Below, in pieces: positions 1 through 53,042 of a stretch of DNA of 64,000 bases (its first letter is position 1; each line of letters begins with the position of its first letter). The notes beneath the pieces are model-generated. The model worked only from the letters and a program-made list of their open reading frames with translations, was not told where the DNA came from and did not search any database. This stretch comes from Escherichia coli. Lineage in GTDB: Bacteria; Pseudomonadota; Gammaproteobacteria; Enterobacterales; Enterobacteriaceae. A program made the translations under genes and the position numbers. The stretch lies in assembly GCF_003991155.1 (NCBI RefSeq), contig NZ_CP031293.1; one strand, written 5' to 3'.

Positions 1-720
1 ATGATCGCCAGTGAAATTAAGCAAAAACTGCATGTTGATGTTCAGGTCGGAGGCGCAGAAGCAGAAGCCGCCATTCAAGGGGCCTTGACTACCCCTGGAA
101 CCACACGTCCACTGGCAATTCTGGACTTAGGTGCAGGCTCTACCGATGCCTCCATCATCAATCAGAAAGGGGAAATTGTTGCCACTCACCTTGCGGGTGC
201 GGGCGACATGGTAACGATGATTATCGTTCGTGAGCTGGGCTTAAATGATCGTTATCTGGCAGAAGAAATCAAAAAGTACCCGTTGGCAAAAGTAGAAAGC
301 CTGTTCCACTTACGCCATGAAGATGGCAGCGTTCAGTTCTTCCCTACTCCCCTATCCCCCTATGTATTTGCCCGCGTCTGTGTAGTGAAACCCGACGAAC
401 TGGTGCCTATTCCCGGTGATTTGACGCTGGAAAAAGTACGCGCTGTTCGTCGCAGTGCGAAAGAGCGTGTCTTCGTAACCAATGCCCTGCGCGCGCTACG
501 TCAGGTAAGCCCTGCCGGAAATATTCGCGACATTCCGTTCGTCGTTCTGGTGGGCGGTTCTTCGCTGGATTTCGAAGTACCACAGTTAGTCACCGATGCA
601 TTGGCGCATTATCGACTGGTCGCCGGACGGGGGAATATCCGTGGTAGCGAAGGTCCGCGCAACGCGGTAGCTACTGGGCTACTCATCGCCTGGCACAAGG
701 AGTCGATTCATGGAAAGTAA
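1..720 (+). CDS. pduG: Diol dehydratase reactivase large subunit, C-terminal 239 aa (gene continues upstream of window)
   Basis: ORF runs from window edge; DLGAGSTD actin/Hsp70-like ATPase motif; followed by pduH-J-K order. Confidence 0.6.
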   Translation: MIASEIKQKLHVDVQVGGAEAEAAIQGALTTPGTTRPLAILDLGAGSTDASIINQKGEIVATHLAGAGDMVTMIIVRELGLNDRYLAEEIKKYPLAKVESLFHLRHEDGSVQFFPTPLSPYVFARVCVVKPDELVPIPGDLTLEKVRAVRRSAKERVFVTNALRALRQVSPAGNIRDIPFVVLVGGSSLDFEVPQLVTDALAHYRLVAGRGNIRGSEGPRNAVATGLLIAWHKESIHGK

Positions 721-1803: not shown

Positions 1804-2436
1804 GTGGATAAACAAACCTTGCAGGAAACAGTGAGCCAGATTCTGGATGAGATGCGCGAGCGCCCTATCCCTCTGGGTGTTTCCAGTCGTCATATTCATC
1901 TTTCAACAGCGGATTATTTGCGTCTTTTTCCTGAACAACCGATTAGCGAGAAAAAGCCGTTAATGCAACCTGGCCAATTCGCTGCTGAACAGGTTGTTAC
2001 GCTGGAGGGACCAAAAGGTAAATTGCACAACGTTCGCTTGTTGGGGCCGCTACGCAATGCAAGCCAGGTGGAAATTTCCCGGACGGACGCCAGAACGTTA
2101 GGGATCACCGCCCCGCTACGCATGTCAGGCGATCTCAGCGGCACTCCAGGGATTCGTTTGGTAAGCCCATTTGCGGAACTGGAGATCACATCTGGCGTCA
2201 TTGTCGCGCAACGGCATATTCATATGTCTCCGCTGGATGCCCTGATTTATGGCGTTACGCATGGCGATAAAGTGGCGGTTGCCATTGAAGGTGATGAGCG
2301 ACGACTGATATTCGAAAACGTCGCTGTTCGCGTCTCTCCGGATATGCGTCTTGAAATGCATATTGATACCGATGAAGCCAACGCCGCAGGGGCTGATAGC
2401 CCTGACGTTTTTGCCACACTGGTGTCAGTGCCATGA
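1804..2436 (+). CDS. pduL: Phosphate propanoyltransferase
   Basis: 210 aa, GTG start; PduL-like sequence and operon position. Confidence 0.7.
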   Translation: MDKQTLQETVSQILDEMRERPIPLGVSSRHIHLSTADYLRLFPEQPISEKKPLMQPGQFAAEQVVTLEGPKGKLHNVRLLGPLRNASQVEISRTDARTLGITAPLRMSGDLSGTPGIRLVSPFAELEITSGVIVAQRHIHMSPLDALIYGVTHGDKVAVAIEGDERRLIFENVAVRVSPDMRLEMHIDTDEANAAGADSPDVFATLVSVP

Positions 2437-3214: not shown

Positions 3215-4222
3215 ATGGCAATTTATACCCGAACAGGTGATTCAGGAAGTACGTCTTTATTTACCGGACAGCGCGTCAGCAAAACTCATCTACGTGTCGA
3301 AACCTATGGCACGCTGGATGAACTGAACGCGACACTCAGTCTGTGTTATTGCGCCACCGCCATCGAAAGCCATCGCATCTTACTGGAAGCCATTCAACAA
3401 CAGATATTTTGGTTTAGCGCCGAACTCGCCAGTGAAAGCGAACAGCCGTCAGCGCAGCAGCGTTACATCGGTACGGAAGAAATTGCCGCGCTGGAAAACG
3501 CGATCGATAGCGCAATGAACGCCGTCCCCCCGGTTCACAGCTTCATTCTGCCTGGTCGATGTGAAGCTGCAAGCCGCATGCATTTCGCCCGCACGGTGGC
3601 TCGACGGGCTGAAAGACGTCTGGTTGAACTGACAACAGAAACCACCGTCCGGAATGTTTTGCTGCACTATATCAACCGACTTTCCGATTGCCTGTATGCC
3701 CTCGCCCGCGTGGAAGACAACGTTGCTCATCAAAACCTGATGATTCAGGAAATCACAAAACGTTATCACGAAGCCAACCACACACCAGCATTGAAGGAAC
3801 GCACAATGCCGCTCACTTTTCAGGATCTTCACCAGCTCATTCGTAGTGCGGCAATGCGCGCAGATGAACTGCATATTCCCGTTGTCATCAGCATTGTTGA
3901 TGCCAACGGAACAGAAAGTGTTACCTGGCGGATGCCTGATGCCCTGTTGGTCAGCAGTGAACTGGCACCGAAAAAAGCCTGGACCGCCGTGGCGATGAAA
4001 ACGGCAACCCACAAACTTGCTGATACCGTGCAACCCGGCGCGCCGCTTTACGGGCTCGAAAGCCATATGCAAGGCAAAGTCGTCACTTTTGGTGGCGGCT
4101 TCCCCCTCTGGCGTGACGGAAAATTGCTTGGCGGGCTTGGCATCAGCGGCGGTAGCGTTGAACAAGACATGGATATTGCCCAAAGCGCAATGGCGGCAAT
4201 TAACGTGGGAGTAAACCAATGA
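3215..4222 (+). CDS. pduO: ATP:cob(I)alamin adenosyltransferase with C-terminal DUF336-like domain
   Basis: 335 aa; PduO-type N-terminal domain (MAIYTRTGDSGSTSL) plus C-terminal domain. Confidence 0.75.
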   Translation: MAIYTRTGDSGSTSLFTGQRVSKTHLRVETYGTLDELNATLSLCYCATAIESHRILLEAIQQQIFWFSAELASESEQPSAQQRYIGTEEIAALENAIDSAMNAVPPVHSFILPGRCEAASRMHFARTVARRAERRLVELTTETTVRNVLLHYINRLSDCLYALARVEDNVAHQNLMIQEITKRYHEANHTPALKERTMPLTFQDLHQLIRSAAMRADELHIPVVISIVDANGTESVTWRMPDALLVSSELAPKKAWTAVAMKTATHKLADTVQPGAPLYGLESHMQGKVVTFGGGFPLWRDGKLLGGLGISGGSVEQDMDIAQSAMAAINVGVNQ

Positions 4223-5604
4223 ATAACTCTGAATTAGAAACACTGATCCGCAATATTCTGCGTGAGCAGCTTGCCCCCGCTACGCAACGAGCGCAAAGAA
4301 ACGCTATTTTCCAGACTGTTGATGAAGCGGTCTGCGCAGCGCACCAGGCCTTTTTACGCTTTCAACAGTGCCCGCTTAAAACCCGTAGCGCCATTATCAG
4401 CGCCATTCGCGAAGAATTAATGCCCCGCCTTACCGAACTGGCAGAAGAAAGCGCCAGTGAAACAGGGATGGGAAATAAAGAGGATAAGTATCTAAAGAAC
4501 AAAGCAGCACTCAATAATACGCCAGGAATTGAAGATTTAACCACCACTGCACTAACCGGTGATGGTGGCATGGTTTTGTTTGAATACTCCCCGTTTGGGG
4601 TTATTGGCTCGGTCACGCCAAGCACCAACCCCACGGAAACCATCATTAACAACAGCATCAGCATGCTGGCAGCAGGTAATAGCGTCTACTTCAGTCCACA
4701 CCCGGGAGCCAAATACGTTTCGTTAAAACTGATTACCACAATCGAAGACATCGCGTTTCGCTGTAGTGGCATTCACAACCTGATCGTTACCGTATCTGAA
4801 CCGACCTTTGCCGCCACCGAACAGATGATGGCGCACCCTAAAATCAGCGTTCTGGCGATTACCGGCGGTCCGGGGATCGTCGCCATGGGAATGAAAAGTG
4901 GCAAGAAAGTGATTGGTGCCGGTGCGGGTAACCCTCCGTGCATCGTCGATGAAACGGCGGATATTGTGAAAGCCGCCGAAGATATCATCAACGGCGCTTC
5001 ATTTGATTACAACCTGCCGTGTATCGCTGAAAAAAGCCTGATTGTCGTGGCATCAGTGGCAGAGTATTTAATTCAGCAGATGCAAAGTTTTGGCGCGCTT
5101 CTTCTTAACTATGAGCAAACGGAGAAATTGCGTGCAATTTGCCTGCCAGACGGTAGCGCCAACAAAAAACTGGTTGGGAAAAGCCCATCAGCCTTGCTGG
5201 AAGCGGCAGGCCTCCCTTTGCCCGCAAAAGCGCCGCGCCTACTGATTGCTGTTGTCGACGCCAATGATAGTTGGGTTACTTGTGAACAACTGATGCCAAT
5301 GCTGCCCATTGTGAAGGTCAACGATTTTGATAGCGCTCTCGCCCTGGCGTTGAAAGTGGAAGACGGCTTGCACCACACGGCAATTATGCACTCGCAGAAC
5401 GTCTCACGGCTCAACCTTGCCGCGCGCGTTATGCAAACCTCAATCTTTGTCAAAAACGGCCCCTCTTGGGCGGGTATTGGCGTCGGCGGCGAAGGCTTTA
5501 CGACCTTTACTATTGCAACACCGACCGGAGAAGGGACAACGTCAGCACGGACTTTTGCCCGCTCACGACGCTGTGTGTTAACCAGCGGCTTTTCAATTCG
5601 CTAG
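4219..5604 (+). CDS. pduP: CoA-acylating propionaldehyde dehydrogenase
   Basis: 461 aa aldehyde dehydrogenase family; operon position. Confidence 0.8.
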   Translation: MNNSELETLIRNILREQLAPATQRAQRNAIFQTVDEAVCAAHQAFLRFQQCPLKTRSAIISAIREELMPRLTELAEESASETGMGNKEDKYLKNKAALNNTPGIEDLTTTALTGDGGMVLFEYSPFGVIGSVTPSTNPTETIINNSISMLAAGNSVYFSPHPGAKYVSLKLITTIEDIAFRCSGIHNLIVTVSEPTFAATEQMMAHPKISVLAITGGPGIVAMGMKSGKKVIGAGAGNPPCIVDETADIVKAAEDIINGASFDYNLPCIAEKSLIVVASVAEYLIQQMQSFGALLLNYEQTEKLRAICLPDGSANKKLVGKSPSALLEAAGLPLPAKAPRLLIAVVDANDSWVTCEQLMPMLPIVKVNDFDSALALALKVEDGLHHTAIMHSQNVSRLNLAARVMQTSIFVKNGPSWAGIGVGGEGFTTFTIATPTGEGTTSARTFARSRRCVLTSGFSIR

Positions 5605-5614
5605 AGAAACGGAA

Positions 5615-6727
5615 ATGAATACTTTTTCACTGCAGACGCGTTTATACAGCGGACCAGGAAGTCTCAAGGTACTTAGCCGTTTCTCTCATAGACACATCTG
5701 GATTATTTGCGATGCCTTTCTGGCACACTCACCACTCATTGACACGTTGCATCAGGCGCTGCCAGACAGTAATCGTCTCAGTATTTTTAGCGAAATAACG
5801 CCCGACCCAACTATCCAGACCGTGGTGAAAGGCATTGCGCAAATGCAGACTTTACGCCCGGATGTGGTTATCGGTTTTGGCGGCGGTTCTGCCCTGGACG
5901 CCGCAAAAGCGATTGTCTGGTTTGGTCGCCAGTGTGGCATTGAAATTGAAACCTGCGTAGCCATTCCTACCACCAGCGGTACCGGTTCCGAAGTGACCAG
6001 TGCTTGTGTCATCAGCGATCCTGAGAAAGGGATTAAATATCCCCTTTTCGATAATGCACTTTATCCGGATATCGCGATCCTTGATCCATCTCTGGTCGTC
6101 AGCGTGCCACCGGCGATAACGGCCAATACCGGGATGGATGTTTTAACCCATGCGCTTGAAGCTTATGTTTCTCCTCGCGCCAGCGACTTCACGGATGCAC
6201 TGGTCGAAAAAGCCGTGCAAATTGTTTTTCAATACCTGCCCACTGCAGTGAAGAAAGGCGATTGTCTCGCCACCCGTGGCAAAATGCATAATGCATCGAC
6301 ACTTGCAGGAATGGCCTTTAGCCAGGCTGGACTGGGATTAAACCATGCAATTGCTCATCAACTCGGCGGACAGTTTCATCTGCCACACGGCCTGGCGAAT
6401 GCGCTCCTGCTCACGGCGGTTATCCGCTTTAATGCTGGCGATCCGCGCGCTGCCAAACGCTACGCCCGGCTGGCGAAAACGTGCCATTTATGCCCGGACA
6501 ACGCCAATGACACCGCCAGCCTGAATGCACTTATTCAACATATTGAACAGCTTAAAACAACCTGTACGCTGCCGACTCTTACCAATGCGCTGAAAGAAAA
6601 AAAAGCAGAATGGTCAATACGCATACCAGATATGGTTCAGGCGGCACTGGCGGATGCAACGTTGCGTACCAACCCGCGTGCGGCTGATGCCTCCGCGATT
6701 GCAGAACTGCTCGAGGAGTTGTTATGA
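5615..6727 (+). CDS. pduQ: Propanol dehydrogenase (iron-containing alcohol dehydrogenase)
   Basis: 370 aa, Fe-ADH motifs (GGGSALDAAK). Confidence 0.8.
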   Translation: MNTFSLQTRLYSGPGSLKVLSRFSHRHIWIICDAFLAHSPLIDTLHQALPDSNRLSIFSEITPDPTIQTVVKGIAQMQTLRPDVVIGFGGGSALDAAKAIVWFGRQCGIEIETCVAIPTTSGTGSEVTSACVISDPEKGIKYPLFDNALYPDIAILDPSLVVSVPPAITANTGMDVLTHALEAYVSPRASDFTDALVEKAVQIVFQYLPTAVKKGDCLATRGKMHNASTLAGMAFSQAGLGLNHAIAHQLGGQFHLPHGLANALLLTAVIRFNAGDPRAAKRYARLAKTCHLCPDNANDTASLNALIQHIEQLKTTCTLPTLTNALKEKKAEWSIRIPDMVQAALADATLRTNPRAADASAIAELLEELL

Positions 6728-8067
6728 ACGTCGAGTTAACCTCCTGCGACGACCAGACCATCCGCGAGCGAGTACAGGCAGCAGGTGTCGTGGGTGCTGG
6801 CGGGGCAGGTTTTCCAACCCATATTAAGCTACAAGCGCGTGTTGACACGTTCCTGGTGAATGCGGCGGAATGCGAACCCATGTTGAAAGTGGATCAACAG
6901 TTAATGGTGCAGCAAGCCAGCCGCCTGCTTCGCGGTGTTCACTATGCGATGAAAGCCACCGGGGCCAGTAGCGGAATCATCGCGCTGAAAGAGAAATATC
7001 AACGGGCAATAAACGCACTCACACCACTGTTACCACCGGATATCCGCCTGCATATTTTGCCCGATGTTTACCCCGCAGGAGACGAAGTGCTGACCATCTG
7101 GATGGCAACTGGTCGCCGCGTTCCACCCGCTGCATTACCCGTTAGCGTCGGTGTGGTGGTCAATAATGTTCAAACCGTACTTAATATTGCCAGAGCCGTC
7201 GAGCAACAGTATCCAGTGACGCGCCGCACACTCACTATTAATGGTGCAGTGGCGAAACCAATAACGGTAACCGTCCCCATCGGCATGTCTTTCCGTGAAG
7301 TCCTGGCGCTGGCGGGCGGCGCAACAGTAGATGCTCCTGGTTTTATCAATGGCGGGCCGATGATGGGAAGTTTGATCACATCGCTCGACACACCCGTCAG
7401 CAAAACCACTGGCGGCTTGCTGGTTTTACCCAACTCTCATTCACTGATCCAACGTCGAATGCAGAATGACCGCAGCGTACTTACCGTCGCGAAAACTGTT
7501 TGTGAGCAATGCCGCTTGTGTACCGATCTCTGCCCACGTCATTTAGTCGGTCACGAACTGGCCCCCCATTTATTAGTACGTGCGGTTAACTACCAACAGC
7601 TCGCTACGCCACAACTGTTACTGACGGCGCTCACCTGTTCGGAGTGCAACGTCTGCGCCAGCGTCGCCTGTCCGGTAGGAATTTTACCAATGCGCATAAA
7701 CCGCCTGCTTAAGCAGGAATTACGCGCACAAAATCTCCGCTACGAAGGTGCCTTAAATCCTGCAGATCCCTTGGCAAATTATCGACTGGTTCCCGTAAAA
7801 CGGCTGGTAACCAGACTGGGCTTAACCCCGTGGTATCAGGATGCGCCATTGTCTGAACAGGTGCCTCAGCCCGAAAAAGTGACGTTATTGTTACGCCAGC
7901 ACATCGGTGCCAGCGCAATTGCGTGTGTACAAAAAGGCGATCGCGTCGTTCATGGGCAATGTGTAGGTCAAATTCCACACGGCACATTAGGTGCCCCCAT
8001 TCATGCCAGTATTGATGGCATGGTCAGCGATGTGACAGAAAACGCGATTACGCTTGTGAGAGGTTAA
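6724..8067 (+). CDS. pduS: Cobalamin reductase, RnfC-like Fe-S flavoprotein
   Basis: 447 aa with two Cys clusters ([25 protein letters not shown]). Confidence 0.75.
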
Positions 8068-8069
8068 CG

Positions 8070-8624
8070 ATGTCGAAAGCGGTAGGTATTTTAGAACTTA
8101 GCAGTATCGCGAAAGGGATGGAAACCGGCGACGCCATGCTGAAAAGCGCCAACGTTGAGTTACTGGTCAGCAAAACGCTATGCCCCGGAAAATTTCTGCT
8201 GATGCTCGGTGGCGATGTGGGCGCGGTGCAACAGGCCATCAACAGCGGTGCTTCCCTTGCTGGTGAAATGCTGGTCGACAGTCTTGTCCTGCCGAATATT
8301 CATCCCAGTCTCCTTTCTGCAATCAGCGGACTGAACCAAGTTGAACAGCACCGGGCTGTCGGCGTAGTCGAAACCTGGAGTGTCGCCGCCTGCATTGACG
8401 CTGCCGATTGTGCTGTCAAAGCTGCGAATGTCATTCTTGTTCGCGTGCATATGGCTTTTGGCATTGGCGGTAAATGCTACATGGTGGTTGCTGGCGATAT
8501 TTCAGATGTTAATAACGCGGTCTCTGTCGCCAGCGAGCGTGCGGGAGAAAAAGGTTTGTTGGTCTATCGGTCGGTGATTGCCCGTCCACATGAAGCCATG
8601 TGGCGTCAGATGGTGGAGGGATAA
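8070..8624 (+). CDS. pduT: Tandem BMC-domain shell protein
   Basis: 184 aa, two BMC domains; stop overlaps pduU start. Confidence 0.75.
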
Positions 8625-8974
8625 TGACAACTCAGCACACAACTGAACGGATGATTCAGGAATATGTCCCTGGTAAGCAGGTCACGCTGGCACATGTCAT
8701 CGCCAATCCAGGGAAGGATCTGTTTAAGAAATTGGGTTTACCAGACACCGTTTCTGCTATTGGCATTCTGACGATTACCCCCAGCGAAGCATCTATCATC
8801 GCATGCGATATCGCCACAAAATCAGGCGCTGTAGAGATCGGTTTTCTTGATCGTTTTACCGGTGCCGTAGTGCTGACTGGTGATGTTTCTGCCATTGAAT
8901 ATGCACTTAGCCAGGTTACCCGTACGCTGGGTGAAATGATGCGCTTTACCACCTGCCCCATTACGCGGACCTGA
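8624..8974 (+). CDS. pduU: Permuted BMC shell protein
   Basis: 116 aa from ATG at 8624 (TAATG overlap with pduT). Confidence 0.7.
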
Positions 8975-8978
8975 CGTT

Positions 8979-9422
8979 ATGCAACGTATGATGCTTATCG
9001 GCCCCAGCCAGTGCGGAAAAACGTCACTCACGCAATGTCTGCGTGGCGAAAATATCCATTATCAGAAAACGCAGGCAATCGTCTGGTCCCCGACCACCAT
9101 TGATACACCAGGCGAATACCTCGAAAACCGCAGCCTCTACAGTGCATTGTTGGTCAGTGCCTGCGAAGCAGACATTATCGCGCTGGTACTTAATGCGGAC
9201 GCACCGTGGTCACCTTTTTCGCCAGGCTTTACCTCGTCAATGAATCGCCCGGTCATTGGAGTAGTAACCAAAGCAGATTTAGCCAGTATGGAACAAATAT
9301 CTTTGGTGAAATGTTGGTTACGGGAAGCTGGAGCGCACAACGTGTTAGTAACCAGTGCGGTTAATAACAATGGAGTTACAGAAGTTTTTGCCTTGCTGCA
9401 TACAGAAGAAGGCTGTCGCTAA
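8979..9422 (+). CDS. pduV: EutP/PduV-family GTPase
   Basis: 147 aa, P-loop GPSQCGKTS. Confidence 0.75.
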
Positions 9423-9481
9423 TTTCGATAGGTTCTCAGATGAGAATGATGACGGTGATACACAGATAAGAATCAATGAGC

Positions 9482-9508
9482 AATGAGGGTTGCCGGGCAA
9501 CCCTCATT
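9482..9508. terminator. Perfect 12-bp-stem palindrome between convergent pduV and yeeX
   Basis: AATGAGGGTTGCCGGGCAACCCTCATT; no strong T-run on either side. Confidence 0.45.
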
Positions 9509-9522
9509 GAATAAAACAGGAA

Positions 9523-9852
9523 TTACTTCGCTTCGCCGTTTTTCATTTCGCCCATAGCTTTCAGCTTTTTGGAGATATCGCGGCGTTCTTTGGAGAGCTC
9601 GGCATTTTTGATGATGTAATCGTCAACGCGATCTTCATAGTCACCTTTCATGCTGGCGATGATGCCCTGGATTGCTTCAACGCTCATCCCTGGCTTGATG
9701 TAATCGCTCAGGTTGTCCAGCAACAGGACGCGCTTCTGGTTGTCACGGATCTTTTTCTCAACGTCCTGAATTTCACGTTGCAGTTTGTTCTTACGACGGA
9801 ACAGACGAACAAATTCCAGTACGTCCTGGAATGAAGGCTTGGTAGTTTCCAT
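9523..9852 (-). CDS. yeeX: DUF496 family protein YeeX
   Basis: 109 aa from [11 protein letters not shown]; ORF track extension upstream judged non-coding. Confidence 0.85.
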
Positions 9853-10023
9853 TTTTATACCCCTGATAATGTGAGAGTCGGATTCGTTTAAGCAACCGCT
9901 ATTCGTTAGGGCCAACATTACTCATAGCTGCCGCAGATGACAATGCTTTTATCCCTTTTCACTATCATACCCTTTATCCTTGCTGAATCGAAGCAGCAGC
10001 AAGATGATTCTGAAGTTCAGGAA

Positions 10024-11082
10024 TTATTTGCGCAAGGCCCGGCAAATCAGATTCGATAGCAACTCAAGCTGATGTGCCGTTTCCATGTTCAGCCACACAT
10101 AACCATAGATTGGTGTTTCTACGACTTTCAGGTCATGGTGGTTATCGAGCAACTGACGCAACTCTTCCACAGCATCGTTCAATTTTTCCGTATTGGCAAA
10201 AACCGGCTGCGGATTACCTTCGTACAGCGCATGAACAAGGCTCAGCAGTATTTGCTGCATCATGTGCTGGGTATCACGAAGTTTTTGCGCGTTCAATAAC
10301 ACGAAATGGCTGGGGCGCGTGGCCCAGTATGCATTGATTTGCAACTCCAGCATACAAACCAGATTGCGATTAATGGTCTGGATACCTTCATATATCGATT
10401 TGGGAATACGGGTTTCTTTGCTGGCGGGCGCAATCAGCCCACGCATTTTCACGGCATCGGTCAGCAGTTTTTGTAGATGGCTTTCCAGACGTGGGCGTTC
10501 GAGTAAGTTCGGTGAGAATGCAGATTGATAGACCCGATTATACTCGGTCAGACTTTTCGCCAGTTGAATGCGCCAGTGGATGAACGCCCGTTGTGGCCAG
10601 ATACCGGTAAACAACATTGCCAGTAAAGAGCCGAGGATCACATCGCCGCTTCGCCACAACGCCGTATCAATTTCACCTGTCGGGGAACCCACAACAATTG
10701 CCAGCGTCACCCCAATCAATAATCCTTGATACGGTTTCTTGCCCAGCGCCAGCCAACCGCAAAGAAACATCGCCGCCGCGCACCAGACTAACATCAGCGG
10801 TAACGAAATTAACTCCAGTTGCAGAGCGATAAGACCTAAAATCGAACCCAACACCGTACCGCCAATACGTTCGAAGGCACGAGGGACAACGTTACCCCAG
10901 AACGAGATTGGCCCCATAATCACCACCATGGTGACCAGCGGCCAGGTACTTTCCGGGATAGTAAACAGGCGGATAATGAGAAAAGTGAGCAGGAATGCCA
11001 GCGCGACCCGAGTACCATGCACAATGCGGTAATGGCGGTATACCCGGATTTCAAACGGGCTTAATGACTTATCGGCACGCAC
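10024..11082 (-). CDS. yeeA: Inner membrane protein YeeA (FUSC-like)
   Basis: 352 aa polytopic membrane protein matching YeeA. Confidence 0.85.
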   Translation of the reverse strand: MRADKSLSPFEIRVYRHYRIVHGTRVALAFLLTFLIIRLFTIPESTWPLVTMVVIMGPISFWGNVVPRAFERIGGTVLGSILGLIALQLELISLPLMLVWCAAAMFLCGWLALGKKPYQGLLIGVTLAIVVGSPTGEIDTALWRSGDVILGSLLAMLFTGIWPQRAFIHWRIQLAKSLTEYNRVYQSAFSPNLLERPRLESHLQKLLTDAVKMRGLIAPASKETRIPKSIYEGIQTINRNLVCMLELQINAYWATRPSHFVLLNAQKLRDTQHMMQQILLSLVHALYEGNPQPVFANTEKLNDAVEELRQLLDNHHDLKVVETPIYGYVWLNMETAHQLELLSNLICRALRK

Positions 11083-13238: not shown

Positions 13239-13306
13239 TTAACCTAATGATGAATGACGGTAAGCAACAATCTACCTTTTTGTTTCACGATTACGCGCAA
13301 CACCCC
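13239..13306 (+). pseudogene. sbcB: Displaced native 5' end of sbcB (first ~16 codons) left at prophage left junction
   Basis: ATGATGAATGACGGTAAGCAACAATCTACCTTTTTGTTTCACGATTACG encodes MMNDGKQQSTFLFHDY, then diverges into phage DNA and stops. Confidence 0.6.
13275..13287. repeat. attL core (13-bp identity with attR)
   Basis: TTTCACGATTACG identical to 53257-53269; flanks are imperfectly similar. Confidence 0.6.
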
Positions 13307-51691: not shown

Positions 51692-51883
51692 ATGACCGAT
51701 ACCAGCCTGATTCCTGAGAAAGAAGTGATGAACAAGCTCGGTGTTTCATCACGTCAGACAATCTGGAACTATACCAAACGGCACGGATTTCCGAAGCCAG
51801 TCAGAACCCACCCCAAATCATACCTTCGTGAAGCTGTTGAAGGGTGGATTCTTAACGGTGGCGTTAATCAGAAATGCTCCTGA
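51692..51883 (+). CDS. xis: AlpA-family excisionase / DNA-binding regulator
   Basis: 63 aa with HTH (LGVSSRQTIWNYTKRHGFPKP); adjacent to integrase. Confidence 0.7.
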   Translation: MTDTSLIPEKEVMNKLGVSSRQTIWNYTKRHGFPKPVRTHPKSYLREAVEGWILNGGVNQKCS

Positions 51884-53042
51884 TGTGCCAGAACAATTTA
51901 TCAGCGTGAAGCTCATACGCTTTGCGCTGAGCCTCTATCCAGTCGTGTTTATTGTATACGGACATTATCCCGCCAAGTTCATGACCGAGCATTCGCTCAG
52001 TAACATGAGGCTCGACATTCATCTCGGACAGACGTGTAACAAGCGTTCTTCTGAAATCGTGTGTTCGCCAGTAACCTAGATCCATCCCTCCCCTTATTCT
52101 ATTTACGAATCGGTTGGCTGCAGCGATGCTGATCGGTTTGTTTATGTCTTCTCCAGGGAAAAGAACATCATTGTACGTTGTCATGGCCTTTTCGAGGAAA
52201 GGCTTAATTTGTTCGAAGATTGGACGGCGGATAGCATTACCCATCTTGCTATGCTCTTTCGGTACGGTCCATACGTTTTCCAGCAGGTCAAATTCTGTCT
52301 TTTTTGCCAGCCTAAGCTCTGAGAGCCTCGCCCCCCACAGCATAAGCATCTGATGAAGTAGCTTATTTGACGTAGACGCACGGCTTCTTTCAATAGCAAG
52401 CCAAATCTTAGCCAGTTCGTGATACGACAGTACACGATCCCCTACCTCAGCGCGGGAGCCGAAGTCCCTTGGTTGGATGCTCATAATTGCGCAACTATCT
52501 ATCAACTGACGCCGCATGCACCAACTTATTGCTGATCTTAGTTGACTTAGCACCTGCCTTGCTCGGCGTGGATTATCTCTTTCTTCTTCGGTAAGCAGGT
52601 CAACCCATTGCTTAACCGTGATAGAAGATGCCGGACGATTAGGGAAGGCGTCATGCATGCGCTTCATAACCGTTGATCGGTAAAGTGCCTGGGTCTTTTC
52701 TCTGAGAGTTGTAGAGACGTAGTTGTCGAACCAGTAGTCGAGACACTGGGCGACCGTCATGGAGTTCTCCACCTTCTCTTCAAAATAAGTGCGTGGATCC
52801 GTTCCTGAGAAATAGAGCTTTCGCAAGTCAGCAGTGATCTGTCTGGCATCCTTCAAAGACATGGATGGGTATCGACCAAGCCCAAGTCGATTAGGCTTGC
52901 CATGCCAGCGATAGCGGTACTGGAACTGGATGACCCCCTTCGGTGAAATTCGTACGCTGAGGCCATCGGCATCAGCCACTTCTTGTGGGCCCGAATATGG
53001 TTTACCATAAATAGTACGAAGTTTTGTGTCGCTTATAGCCAT
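51864..53042 (-). CDS. int: Tyrosine site-specific integrase
   Basis: 392 aa; C-terminal HDFRRT...LGH catalytic region; next to right junction. Confidence 0.9.
   Translation of the reverse strand: MAISDTKLRTIYGKPYSGPQEVADADGLSVRISPKGVIQFQYRYRWHGKPNRLGLGRYPSMSLKDARQITADLRKLYFSGTDPRTYFEEKVENSMTVAQCLDYWFDNYVSTTLREKTQALYRSTVMKRMHDAFPNRPASSITVKQWVDLLTEEERDNPRRARQVLSQLRSAISWCMRRQLIDSCAIMSIQPRDFGSRAEVGDRVLSYHELAKIWLAIERSRASTSNKLLHQMLMLWGARLSELRLAKKTEFDLLENVWTVPKEHSKMGNAIRRPIFEQIKPFLEKAMTTYNDVLFPGEDINKPISIAAANRFVNRIRGGMDLGYWRTHDFRRTLVTRLSEMNVEPHVTERMLGHELGGIMSVYNKHDWIEAQRKAYELHADKLFWHIRSISD

Follow-up and report, generated by a model that had tools for sequence, protein, structure and literature searches.

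Regarding the known forms of the pdu locus, the closest described system is PDU1B, which was reported for E. coli E24377A, LF82 and UMN026 and for Shigella sonnei (Axen, Erbilgin & Kerfeld 2014, PMC4207490 supplement). According to that supplement, PDU1B loci lack PduX and PduW but otherwise have homologs of every PDU1A pdu gene, and of the cob operon they carry cobSTU alone (PMC4207490). PDU1A, found in Salmonella enterica and Citrobacter (pduABCDEGHJKLMNOPQSTUVWX), occupies the same site as the E. coli locus (cobUST...pocR-pduF-pdu...tmaR-yeeA-sbmC-dacD) and shares with it the gene order up to pduV and a hairpin beside tmaR. PDU1A differs in carrying pduW (404 aa) and pduX (288–300 aa) before tmaR, a pduX-tmaR spacer of only 33–50 bp and a full cbi operon. 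Both PduW and PduX reside in the cytosol, outside the compartment (PMC7181861), and E. coli was described as having no PduW equivalent (Chittori et al. 2012, PMC3475010). A third point of reference is E. coli K-12, which has a spacer and hairpin identical to those of the present locus along with the last 60 pduV codons; the remainder of pdu is missing through deletion, and this fragment borders directly on the CP4-44 prophage region.

The window, that is, the whole 64-kb stretch of E. coli DNA that was analyzed, opens inside the pdu operon and reads pduG'(3' part)-H-J-K-L-M-N-O-P-Q-S-T-U-V, as judged from the ORF list and profile matches. Gene names were taken from an annotated, near-identical E. 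coli locus (L001, NZ_CP029747.1), with the window coordinate equal to the L001 coordinate minus 11401; pduA-F are present in L001 and lie upstream of the window. The 1401-bp junction at 8600–10000 is 100% identical to L001 and to strain 2016C-3878. The last gene of the operon is pduV, and its stop at 9422 is separated from the stop of the convergent tmaR (yeeX) at 9523 by exactly 100 bp. The features of the locus are as follows.

1–720, plus strand: 3' part of pduG, diol dehydratase reactivase alpha (ORF list; position matches the annotated gene in L001)
1804–2436, plus strand: pduL, phosphate propanoyltransferase (ORF; RefSeq annotation of the L001 equivalent)
4219–5604, plus strand: pduP, CoA-acylating propionaldehyde dehydrogenase (NF011927, E=7.6e-216; L001 annotation)
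5615–6727, plus strand: pduQ, 1-propanol dehydrogenase (Fe-ADH family matches; L001 annotation)
6724–8067, plus strand: pduS, RnfC-like 4Fe-4S cobalamin reductase (TIGR01945, E=2.5e-76; L001 annotation)
8070–8624, plus strand: pduT, shell protein (TIGR02526, E=4e-46; annotation)
8624–8974, plus strand: pduU, shell protein (EutS/PduU family NF012012, E=1.6e-39; annotation)
8979–9422, plus strand: pduV, 147 aa, final gene of the operon (EutP/PduV TIGR02528, E=2.9e-55; alignment of the 3' end and C-terminus)
9423–9522, no strand: pduV-tmaR spacer, 100 bp, site of the proposed deletion of about 2.2 kb (pduW and pduX) (homologous Escherichia spacers of 100–108 bp)
9481–9509, no strand: hairpin, perfect 14+14 palindrome (folding; cross-genus consensus structure)
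9481–9486, plus strand: CAA TGA within the left arm of the hairpin, putative relic of the pduX stop (alignment; anchored identity)
9523–9852, minus strand: tmaR (yeeX), DUF496 PTS regulator, convergent with pduV (NF003844, E=4.7e-59; NF040881, E=4e-56; annotation)
10024–11082, minus strand: yeeA, FUSC family (tblastn synteny table; annotation)

A tblastn search with Citrobacter PduW and PduX as queries (E<=1e-10) gave zero matches across all 64 kb of the window and likewise none in the Escherichia loci, bearing out the original prediction that the pdu operon ends at pduV with neither gene before yeeX. In comparison with PDU1B, homologs of the PDU1A pdu genes up to pduV are present (pduA-F from L001), PduW and PduX are absent from the locus, and the host is Escherichia/Shigella, with the junction segment found in 5417 of 5426 complete E. 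coli genomes. The cobUST adjacency of PDU1B lies outside the window and is seen in L001. Every PDU1B feature that can be checked inside the bounds of the window is present, and nothing substantive sets the two apart. The E. coli locus devoid of pduW and pduX is already published as PDU1B, and E. coli and its sister species ordinarily have the operon without these genes. This reading as a whole, together with the ancestral deletion proposed below, has a probability of roughly 0.9. What the present analysis adds to PDU1B is a junction common to E. whittamii and E. albertii, which implies a genus-wide age, a putative pduX stop relic in a conserved hairpin, and a proposed link to the loss of the cbi genes.

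In loci other than those of Escherichia, tblastn detected both pduW and pduX in every case compared, except for contigs L018 and L028, which stop before or within pduX. About 20 Citrobacter, Pseudocitrobacter and related loci read pduV-pduW-pduX-tmaR-yeeA, and a Salmonella-type locus with phs genes beyond dacD (L040) reads pduV-pduW-pduX-tmaR-yeeA-sbmC-dacD, so that the Salmonella-type order given in the original prediction was found as described. In L040 and in most loci of the Citrobacter group, about 2.2 kb separate the pduV and tmaR stops; the gap is larger in two loci that contain additional sequence (about 2.25 kb in L019 and about 2.9 kb in L027). PduW in these genera is a 404-aa acetate/propionate kinase (NF009063, E=1e-252), the ATG of which overlaps the pduV stop, and PduX is a GHMP kinase of 288–300 aa, named L-threonine kinase by NCBI. 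Where the downstream flank is covered by the contig, the Citrobacter, Pseudocitrobacter, Pluralibacter and Salmonella-type loci have both genes between pduV and tmaR-yeeA, the sole exception being the Pluralibacter contig L020, in which no tmaR was found. As yeeA is the conserved right-hand neighbor in all the genera compared, the locus lies at the same chromosomal site. Klebsiella-type loci read pduV-pduW-pduX-cobD at another chromosomal site, adjoining amiC-argA-recD. Of the genera compared, Escherichia is thus the only one in which pduW and pduX do not travel with the pdu operon.

During this comparison, sequence P0103 was ruled out as Salmonella PduX because it belongs to a Klebsiella-type locus adjoining cobD-amiC-argA; the Salmonella-type locus was obtained with P0064. 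In one soil metagenome-assembled genome (Proteobacteria bacterium CTSoil_132), pduW and pduX are separated by a gene for a uroporphyrinogen-III methyltransferase of the cobA/cysG type (L027:8643-9386).

The spacer of the window contains a perfect palindrome with arms at 9481–9494 and 9496–9509, each of 14 nt, 100% complementary and separated by 1 nt; the original prediction of about 100 bp with a perfect palindrome between the two stops was accurate. On either strand, the predicted fold is a stem of 13 bp closed by a triloop, at about -22 kcal/mol (z = -4.7 to -6.0), and none of 200 shuffles folded as well. The palindrome lies 58 nt past the pduV stop, and its distance to the stop of tmaR is 13 nt. 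On the tmaR strand, a stem-loop a few bases past the tmaR stop is common to 20 loci of Escherichia, Citrobacter, Pseudocitrobacter and the Salmonella type, and the consensus stem shows compensatory changes in 9 of 11 pairs. Paired cells amount to 89%, versus 34–59% in controls with the partners slid by 1–3 columns, and the observed values were reached by 0 of 500 shuffles. The element has the stable, G+C-rich stem-loop of a canonical intrinsic terminator. It has no canonical U-run directly 3' of the stem, and a consensus terminator scan with the simple T-run rule does not call it on either strand; the bases that follow the stem are CUCAUUGAUUCUUAU (tmaR strand) and AAUAAAACAGG (pdu strand). 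The Rfam 15 covariance models gave no match in 9200–10100 up to E=1. Position and covariation together suggest that the hairpin is probably a transcript 3'-end or terminator structure of the convergent genes. A short ORF in the spacer, ATGAGAATGATGACGGTGATACACAGATAA, was considered as a coding sequence and dropped, since it is unconserved in E69, E. whittamii and E. albertii.

The hairpin also offers a clue to the fate of pduX. In pduX-bearing species, the distal arm of the hairpin holds the last pduX codon and the stop (CAG TGA or CAA TAA); for example, the arm of C. amalonaticus reads CAG TGA GGATC...GATCC TCACTG. At the position of the pduX stop, E. coli has CAA TGA GGGTTGCC and E. albertii has CAG TGA GGATTG. 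With the stop codons anchored, the window and C. braakii are identical at 17 of 29 bases without gaps, a level reached at 9e-5 of window positions, the anchor having been picked after the alignment was seen and the relic signal being short. Profiles of the pduX end (last ~120 nt of pduX) were built with and without the intergenic region and run with nhmmer on the whole window; the profile of pduX end and intergenic region was placed at 9475–9529, correctly for the hairpin part only, with E=0.75 for the whole window. These comparisons provide moderate evidence that CAA TGA at 9481–9486 is a relic of pduX. The nhmmer profiles detected no homology to pduW or pduX in the remainder of the spacer, 9423–9475, and the whole spacer is accordingly not claimed as decayed pduX. 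On the left side, homology to the other genera spans the ribosome-binding and start region of pduW at the end of pduV and then stops. Past the pduV stop, MAFFT aligns the left junction ambiguously, which puts the left breakpoint within a few codons of the pduW start. The C-terminus of PduV in the window ends with LLHTEEGCR, and that in the pduW-bearing genera with KEPSCLTK. In E. albertii (L006:7001-7432), pduV is four codons shorter (143 aa, ending with LLHSE), with a TAA within the otherwise conserved 3' end.

Since the hairpin is conserved across genera and CAA TGA is kept at the position of the pduX stop, the best reading of the junction is a deletion of about 2.2 kb in an Escherichia ancestor that would have removed pduW and pduX; both the direction of the change and its ends are reconstructed from aligned loci, and the breakpoints are approximate because 9423–9475 has no detectable homology to either gene. 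The ancestor would have carried the Salmonella/Citrobacter order pduV-pduW-pduX-tmaR, and a single deletion would have begun just inside pduW, whose start overlaps the end of pduV, and finished shortly ahead of the pduX stop. Such a deletion would have spared pduV as well as the hairpin, which straddles the pduX stop and is located immediately past the end of tmaR. As the hairpin was kept, the convergent transcripts are proposed to have retained their 3'-end structure. The hairpin by tmaR may also, as a conserved element, have limited the choice of the final pduX codons and set the point at which a deletion was able to stop.

The opposite direction, in which the short Escherichia form would be ancestral and pduW-pduX would have been inserted in the Salmonella, Citrobacter and Klebsiella lineages, would account for a mid-spacer (9423–9475) devoid of detectable pduW or pduX homology. 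This scenario is nevertheless very unlikely, as pduW-pduX follow pduV in every other genus, even in the Klebsiella-type loci on the argA-recD side, and pduW also comes after pduV on the mobile island of E. coli strain 48 described below. Their presence after pduV in other genera and at other sites indicates that pduW-pduX belong to the operon wherever it travels. The overlap of the pduW start with the pduV stop, the pduX stop lying in the conserved hairpin and the CAA TGA found there in E. coli likewise argue against an insertion and in favor of the deletion.

The distribution of the junction was investigated with a 1401-base query (window 8600–10000). Of 5426 complete E. coli genomes, 640 have the pduU-pduV-tmaR junction in full, and 5417 have the part comprising the pduV 3' end, the spacer and tmaR, including the pduV fragment of K-12, with at least 95% identity in all but one of them. 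Nearly all of the partial matches begin at query base 641 (window 9240) and consist of the last ~60 pduV codons, the spacer and tmaR; about 88% of complete E. coli genomes thus retain merely a pduV fragment. In K-12, the fragment is 183 bp long, is annotated as EutP/PduV family, adjoins tmaR and abuts CP4-44 prophage genes. A PduV scan with one genome per species revealed spacers of 100–108 bp in E. coli, E. whittamii, E. albertii and Escherichia sp., all of which align with the window over the full length, and the identity of PduV across Escherichia species is 87–93%, with 87–90% for E. whittamii and E. albertii. Because the spacer is common to the Escherichia species and to the fragments of pdu-negative E. 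coli, the pduV-tmaR junction is genus-wide and predates the disappearance of pdu in the majority of E. coli. The shared left end of the fragments at 9240 suggests one ancestral deletion or insertion that removed pdu and then spread, as opposed to many independent losses, and the junction of the pduV fragment with tmaR shows that the pdu-negative state of most E. coli derives from an ancestor lacking pduW and pduX. In a few pdu-negative E. coli, the pduV fragment starts instead at window 9124, 9246, 9249 or 9497.

This distribution bears on the suggestion in the original prediction that the locus may be a lineage-specific form of the E. coli pdu island. The form is real, and the lineage in question is the genus Escherichia, not this E. 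coli strain alone. Reference E. coli loci that also end at pduV, which had been named as evidence against that reading, exist in the 640 complete genomes, and the absence of the two genes itself stands. The original reading is partly supported.

The large share of genomes with only a pduV fragment, together with the disappearance of the cbi genes, would also be expected if the E. coli pdu locus were a decaying, non-functional remnant and the loss of pduW and pduX one step of the decay. This view is as unlikely as the insertion: the pdu ORFs in the window are all intact and equal in length to the annotated genes, PduV is conserved across Escherichia species, and 1,2-propanediol growth of a pdu-positive E. 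coli depends on pduC (PMC9220930).

Relocation of pduW and pduX to another place in the source genome, e.g., a second pdu or cob island, is less probable again. It has a rare precedent in E. coli strain 48, isolated from deer (L032, NZ_CP166879.1:5243959-5275121), in which a pduA-pduW block lacking pduX precedes a cdiA region and fragments of IS66, IS21 and IS4. The IS66/IS21-flanked block indicates a second pdu island, apparently acquired horizontally. Moreover, a Klebsiella-type pdu...pduV-pduW-pduX-cobD block adjoining amiC-argA-recD-recB occurs in a few assemblies, drafts among them, that bear the label E. coli or Shigella flexneri (L036-L039; e.g., GCA_022423985.1 JAHTJD010000013.1). Either the block was gained, as a rare event, at a different place in the chromosome, or these assemblies are contaminated or wrongly labelled. 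Against relocation, blastn at "distant" sensitivity with Citrobacter pduW and pduX DNA revealed a pduW-like match in 1 of 5426 complete E. coli genomes and pduX-like DNA in none of the 5426, and the 64-kb window contains no PduW or PduX match. Apart from strain 48, the Citrobacter DNA matches E. coli genomes merely in a 63-nt patch of tdcD. The source strain is not one of the complete RefSeq genomes, among which the highest coverage of the first 25 kb of the window is 81%. Judged from this population, the rest of the genome of the source strain is predicted to lack pduW and pduX as well. Finally, a recent strain-specific deletion or an assembly artefact confined to the source genome, for which nothing speaks beyond the bare absence, has a negligible probability, given the same junction in 640 complete genomes with its tmaR-side part in 5417 of 5426, the same spacer in E. 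whittamii and E. albertii despite 87–90% PduV identity, and the description of the form for E24377A, LF82, UMN026 and S. sonnei (PMC4207490).

With the deletion in an Escherichia ancestor as the preferred reading, tolerance of the loss of pduX may be considered in terms of B12 metabolism. PduX phosphorylates L-threonine, CobD decarboxylates the product, and CbiB attaches the result to adenosylcobyric acid; E. coli has only the nucleotide-loop salvage enzymes CobU/S/T/C, and de novo B12 synthesis required the addition of pduX, cobD and cbiB (PMC6249242). L-Threonine phosphate, the product of PduX, serves only the aminopropanol linker in de novo or cobyric-acid-based B12 synthesis, and Escherichia, having lost the cbi genes, salvages cobinamide via CobUST alone. 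We propose that PduX became dispensable because no CbiB, CobD or cbi genes were left to use its product, a point that the original prediction left aside. L001 reads cobT-cobS-cobU, CbiG fragment, B12 riboswitch and pocR. The "hypothetical protein" of 145 aa between the cobalamin riboswitch and cobU (L001:2906-3343) corresponds to the N-terminal third of CbiG (E=1e-19). This fragment of CbiG (cobalt-precorrin 5A hydrolase) is apparently all that pdu-positive E. coli retain of the cbi operon, and their B12 supply depends on corrinoid salvage.

Regarding PduW, the reaction converts propionyl-phosphate, made by PduL, and ADP to propionate and ATP, and the paralogs TdcD and AckA could take over this step. 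Of the 5426 complete E. coli genomes, 5391 contain tdcD, and AckA is also present in E. coli. In Salmonella, PduW and AckA reportedly overlap in function (Palacios et al. 2003). The PduW step is most likely covered by TdcD or AckA; in a pduL-positive Crohn's isolate, TdcD was the sole PduW homolog found (PMC7360682). A stronger version holds that pdu-positive E. coli, including Crohn's-associated AIEC, must route the propionyl-phosphate made by PduL via AckA or via TdcD, which is regulated by threonine and anaerobiosis, and that the physiology thereby differs measurably from that of Salmonella. Taken jointly with the idea that the hairpin constrained the deletion, this version is doubtful. If it were true, E. 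coli using 1,2-propanediol would differ from Salmonella in the size of its propionyl-phosphate pool, in ATP yield and in protein modification that depends on acyl phosphates. As the native E. coli locus supplies neither a propionate kinase nor a threonine kinase, ATP recovery would rest on housekeeping kinases, which is relevant to modelling and engineering of the pathway in AIEC, EPEC and ETEC. Beyond correct annotation, the significance of the missing genes is slight.

Farther along the window, a P22-like prophage of about 40 kb (approximately 13297–53270) separates dacD from sbcB, having integrated into the latter at its 5' end. Among phages, it is matched best by Escherichia phages APC_JM3.2 and IME10, with about 96% identity over 63–66% of 13100–38000, and its integrase ORF is at 51864–53042 on the minus strand. 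The left junction retains the native sbcB start and codons 1–16 (13248–13296), and at the right junction phage DNA provides a new sbcB start, giving the N-terminus MTDTDKQP as compared with MMNDGKQQS. As the remainder of SbcB is 99% identical, sbcB stays intact with the phage-supplied start. The sequence TTTCACGATTACG is common to both prophage junctions.
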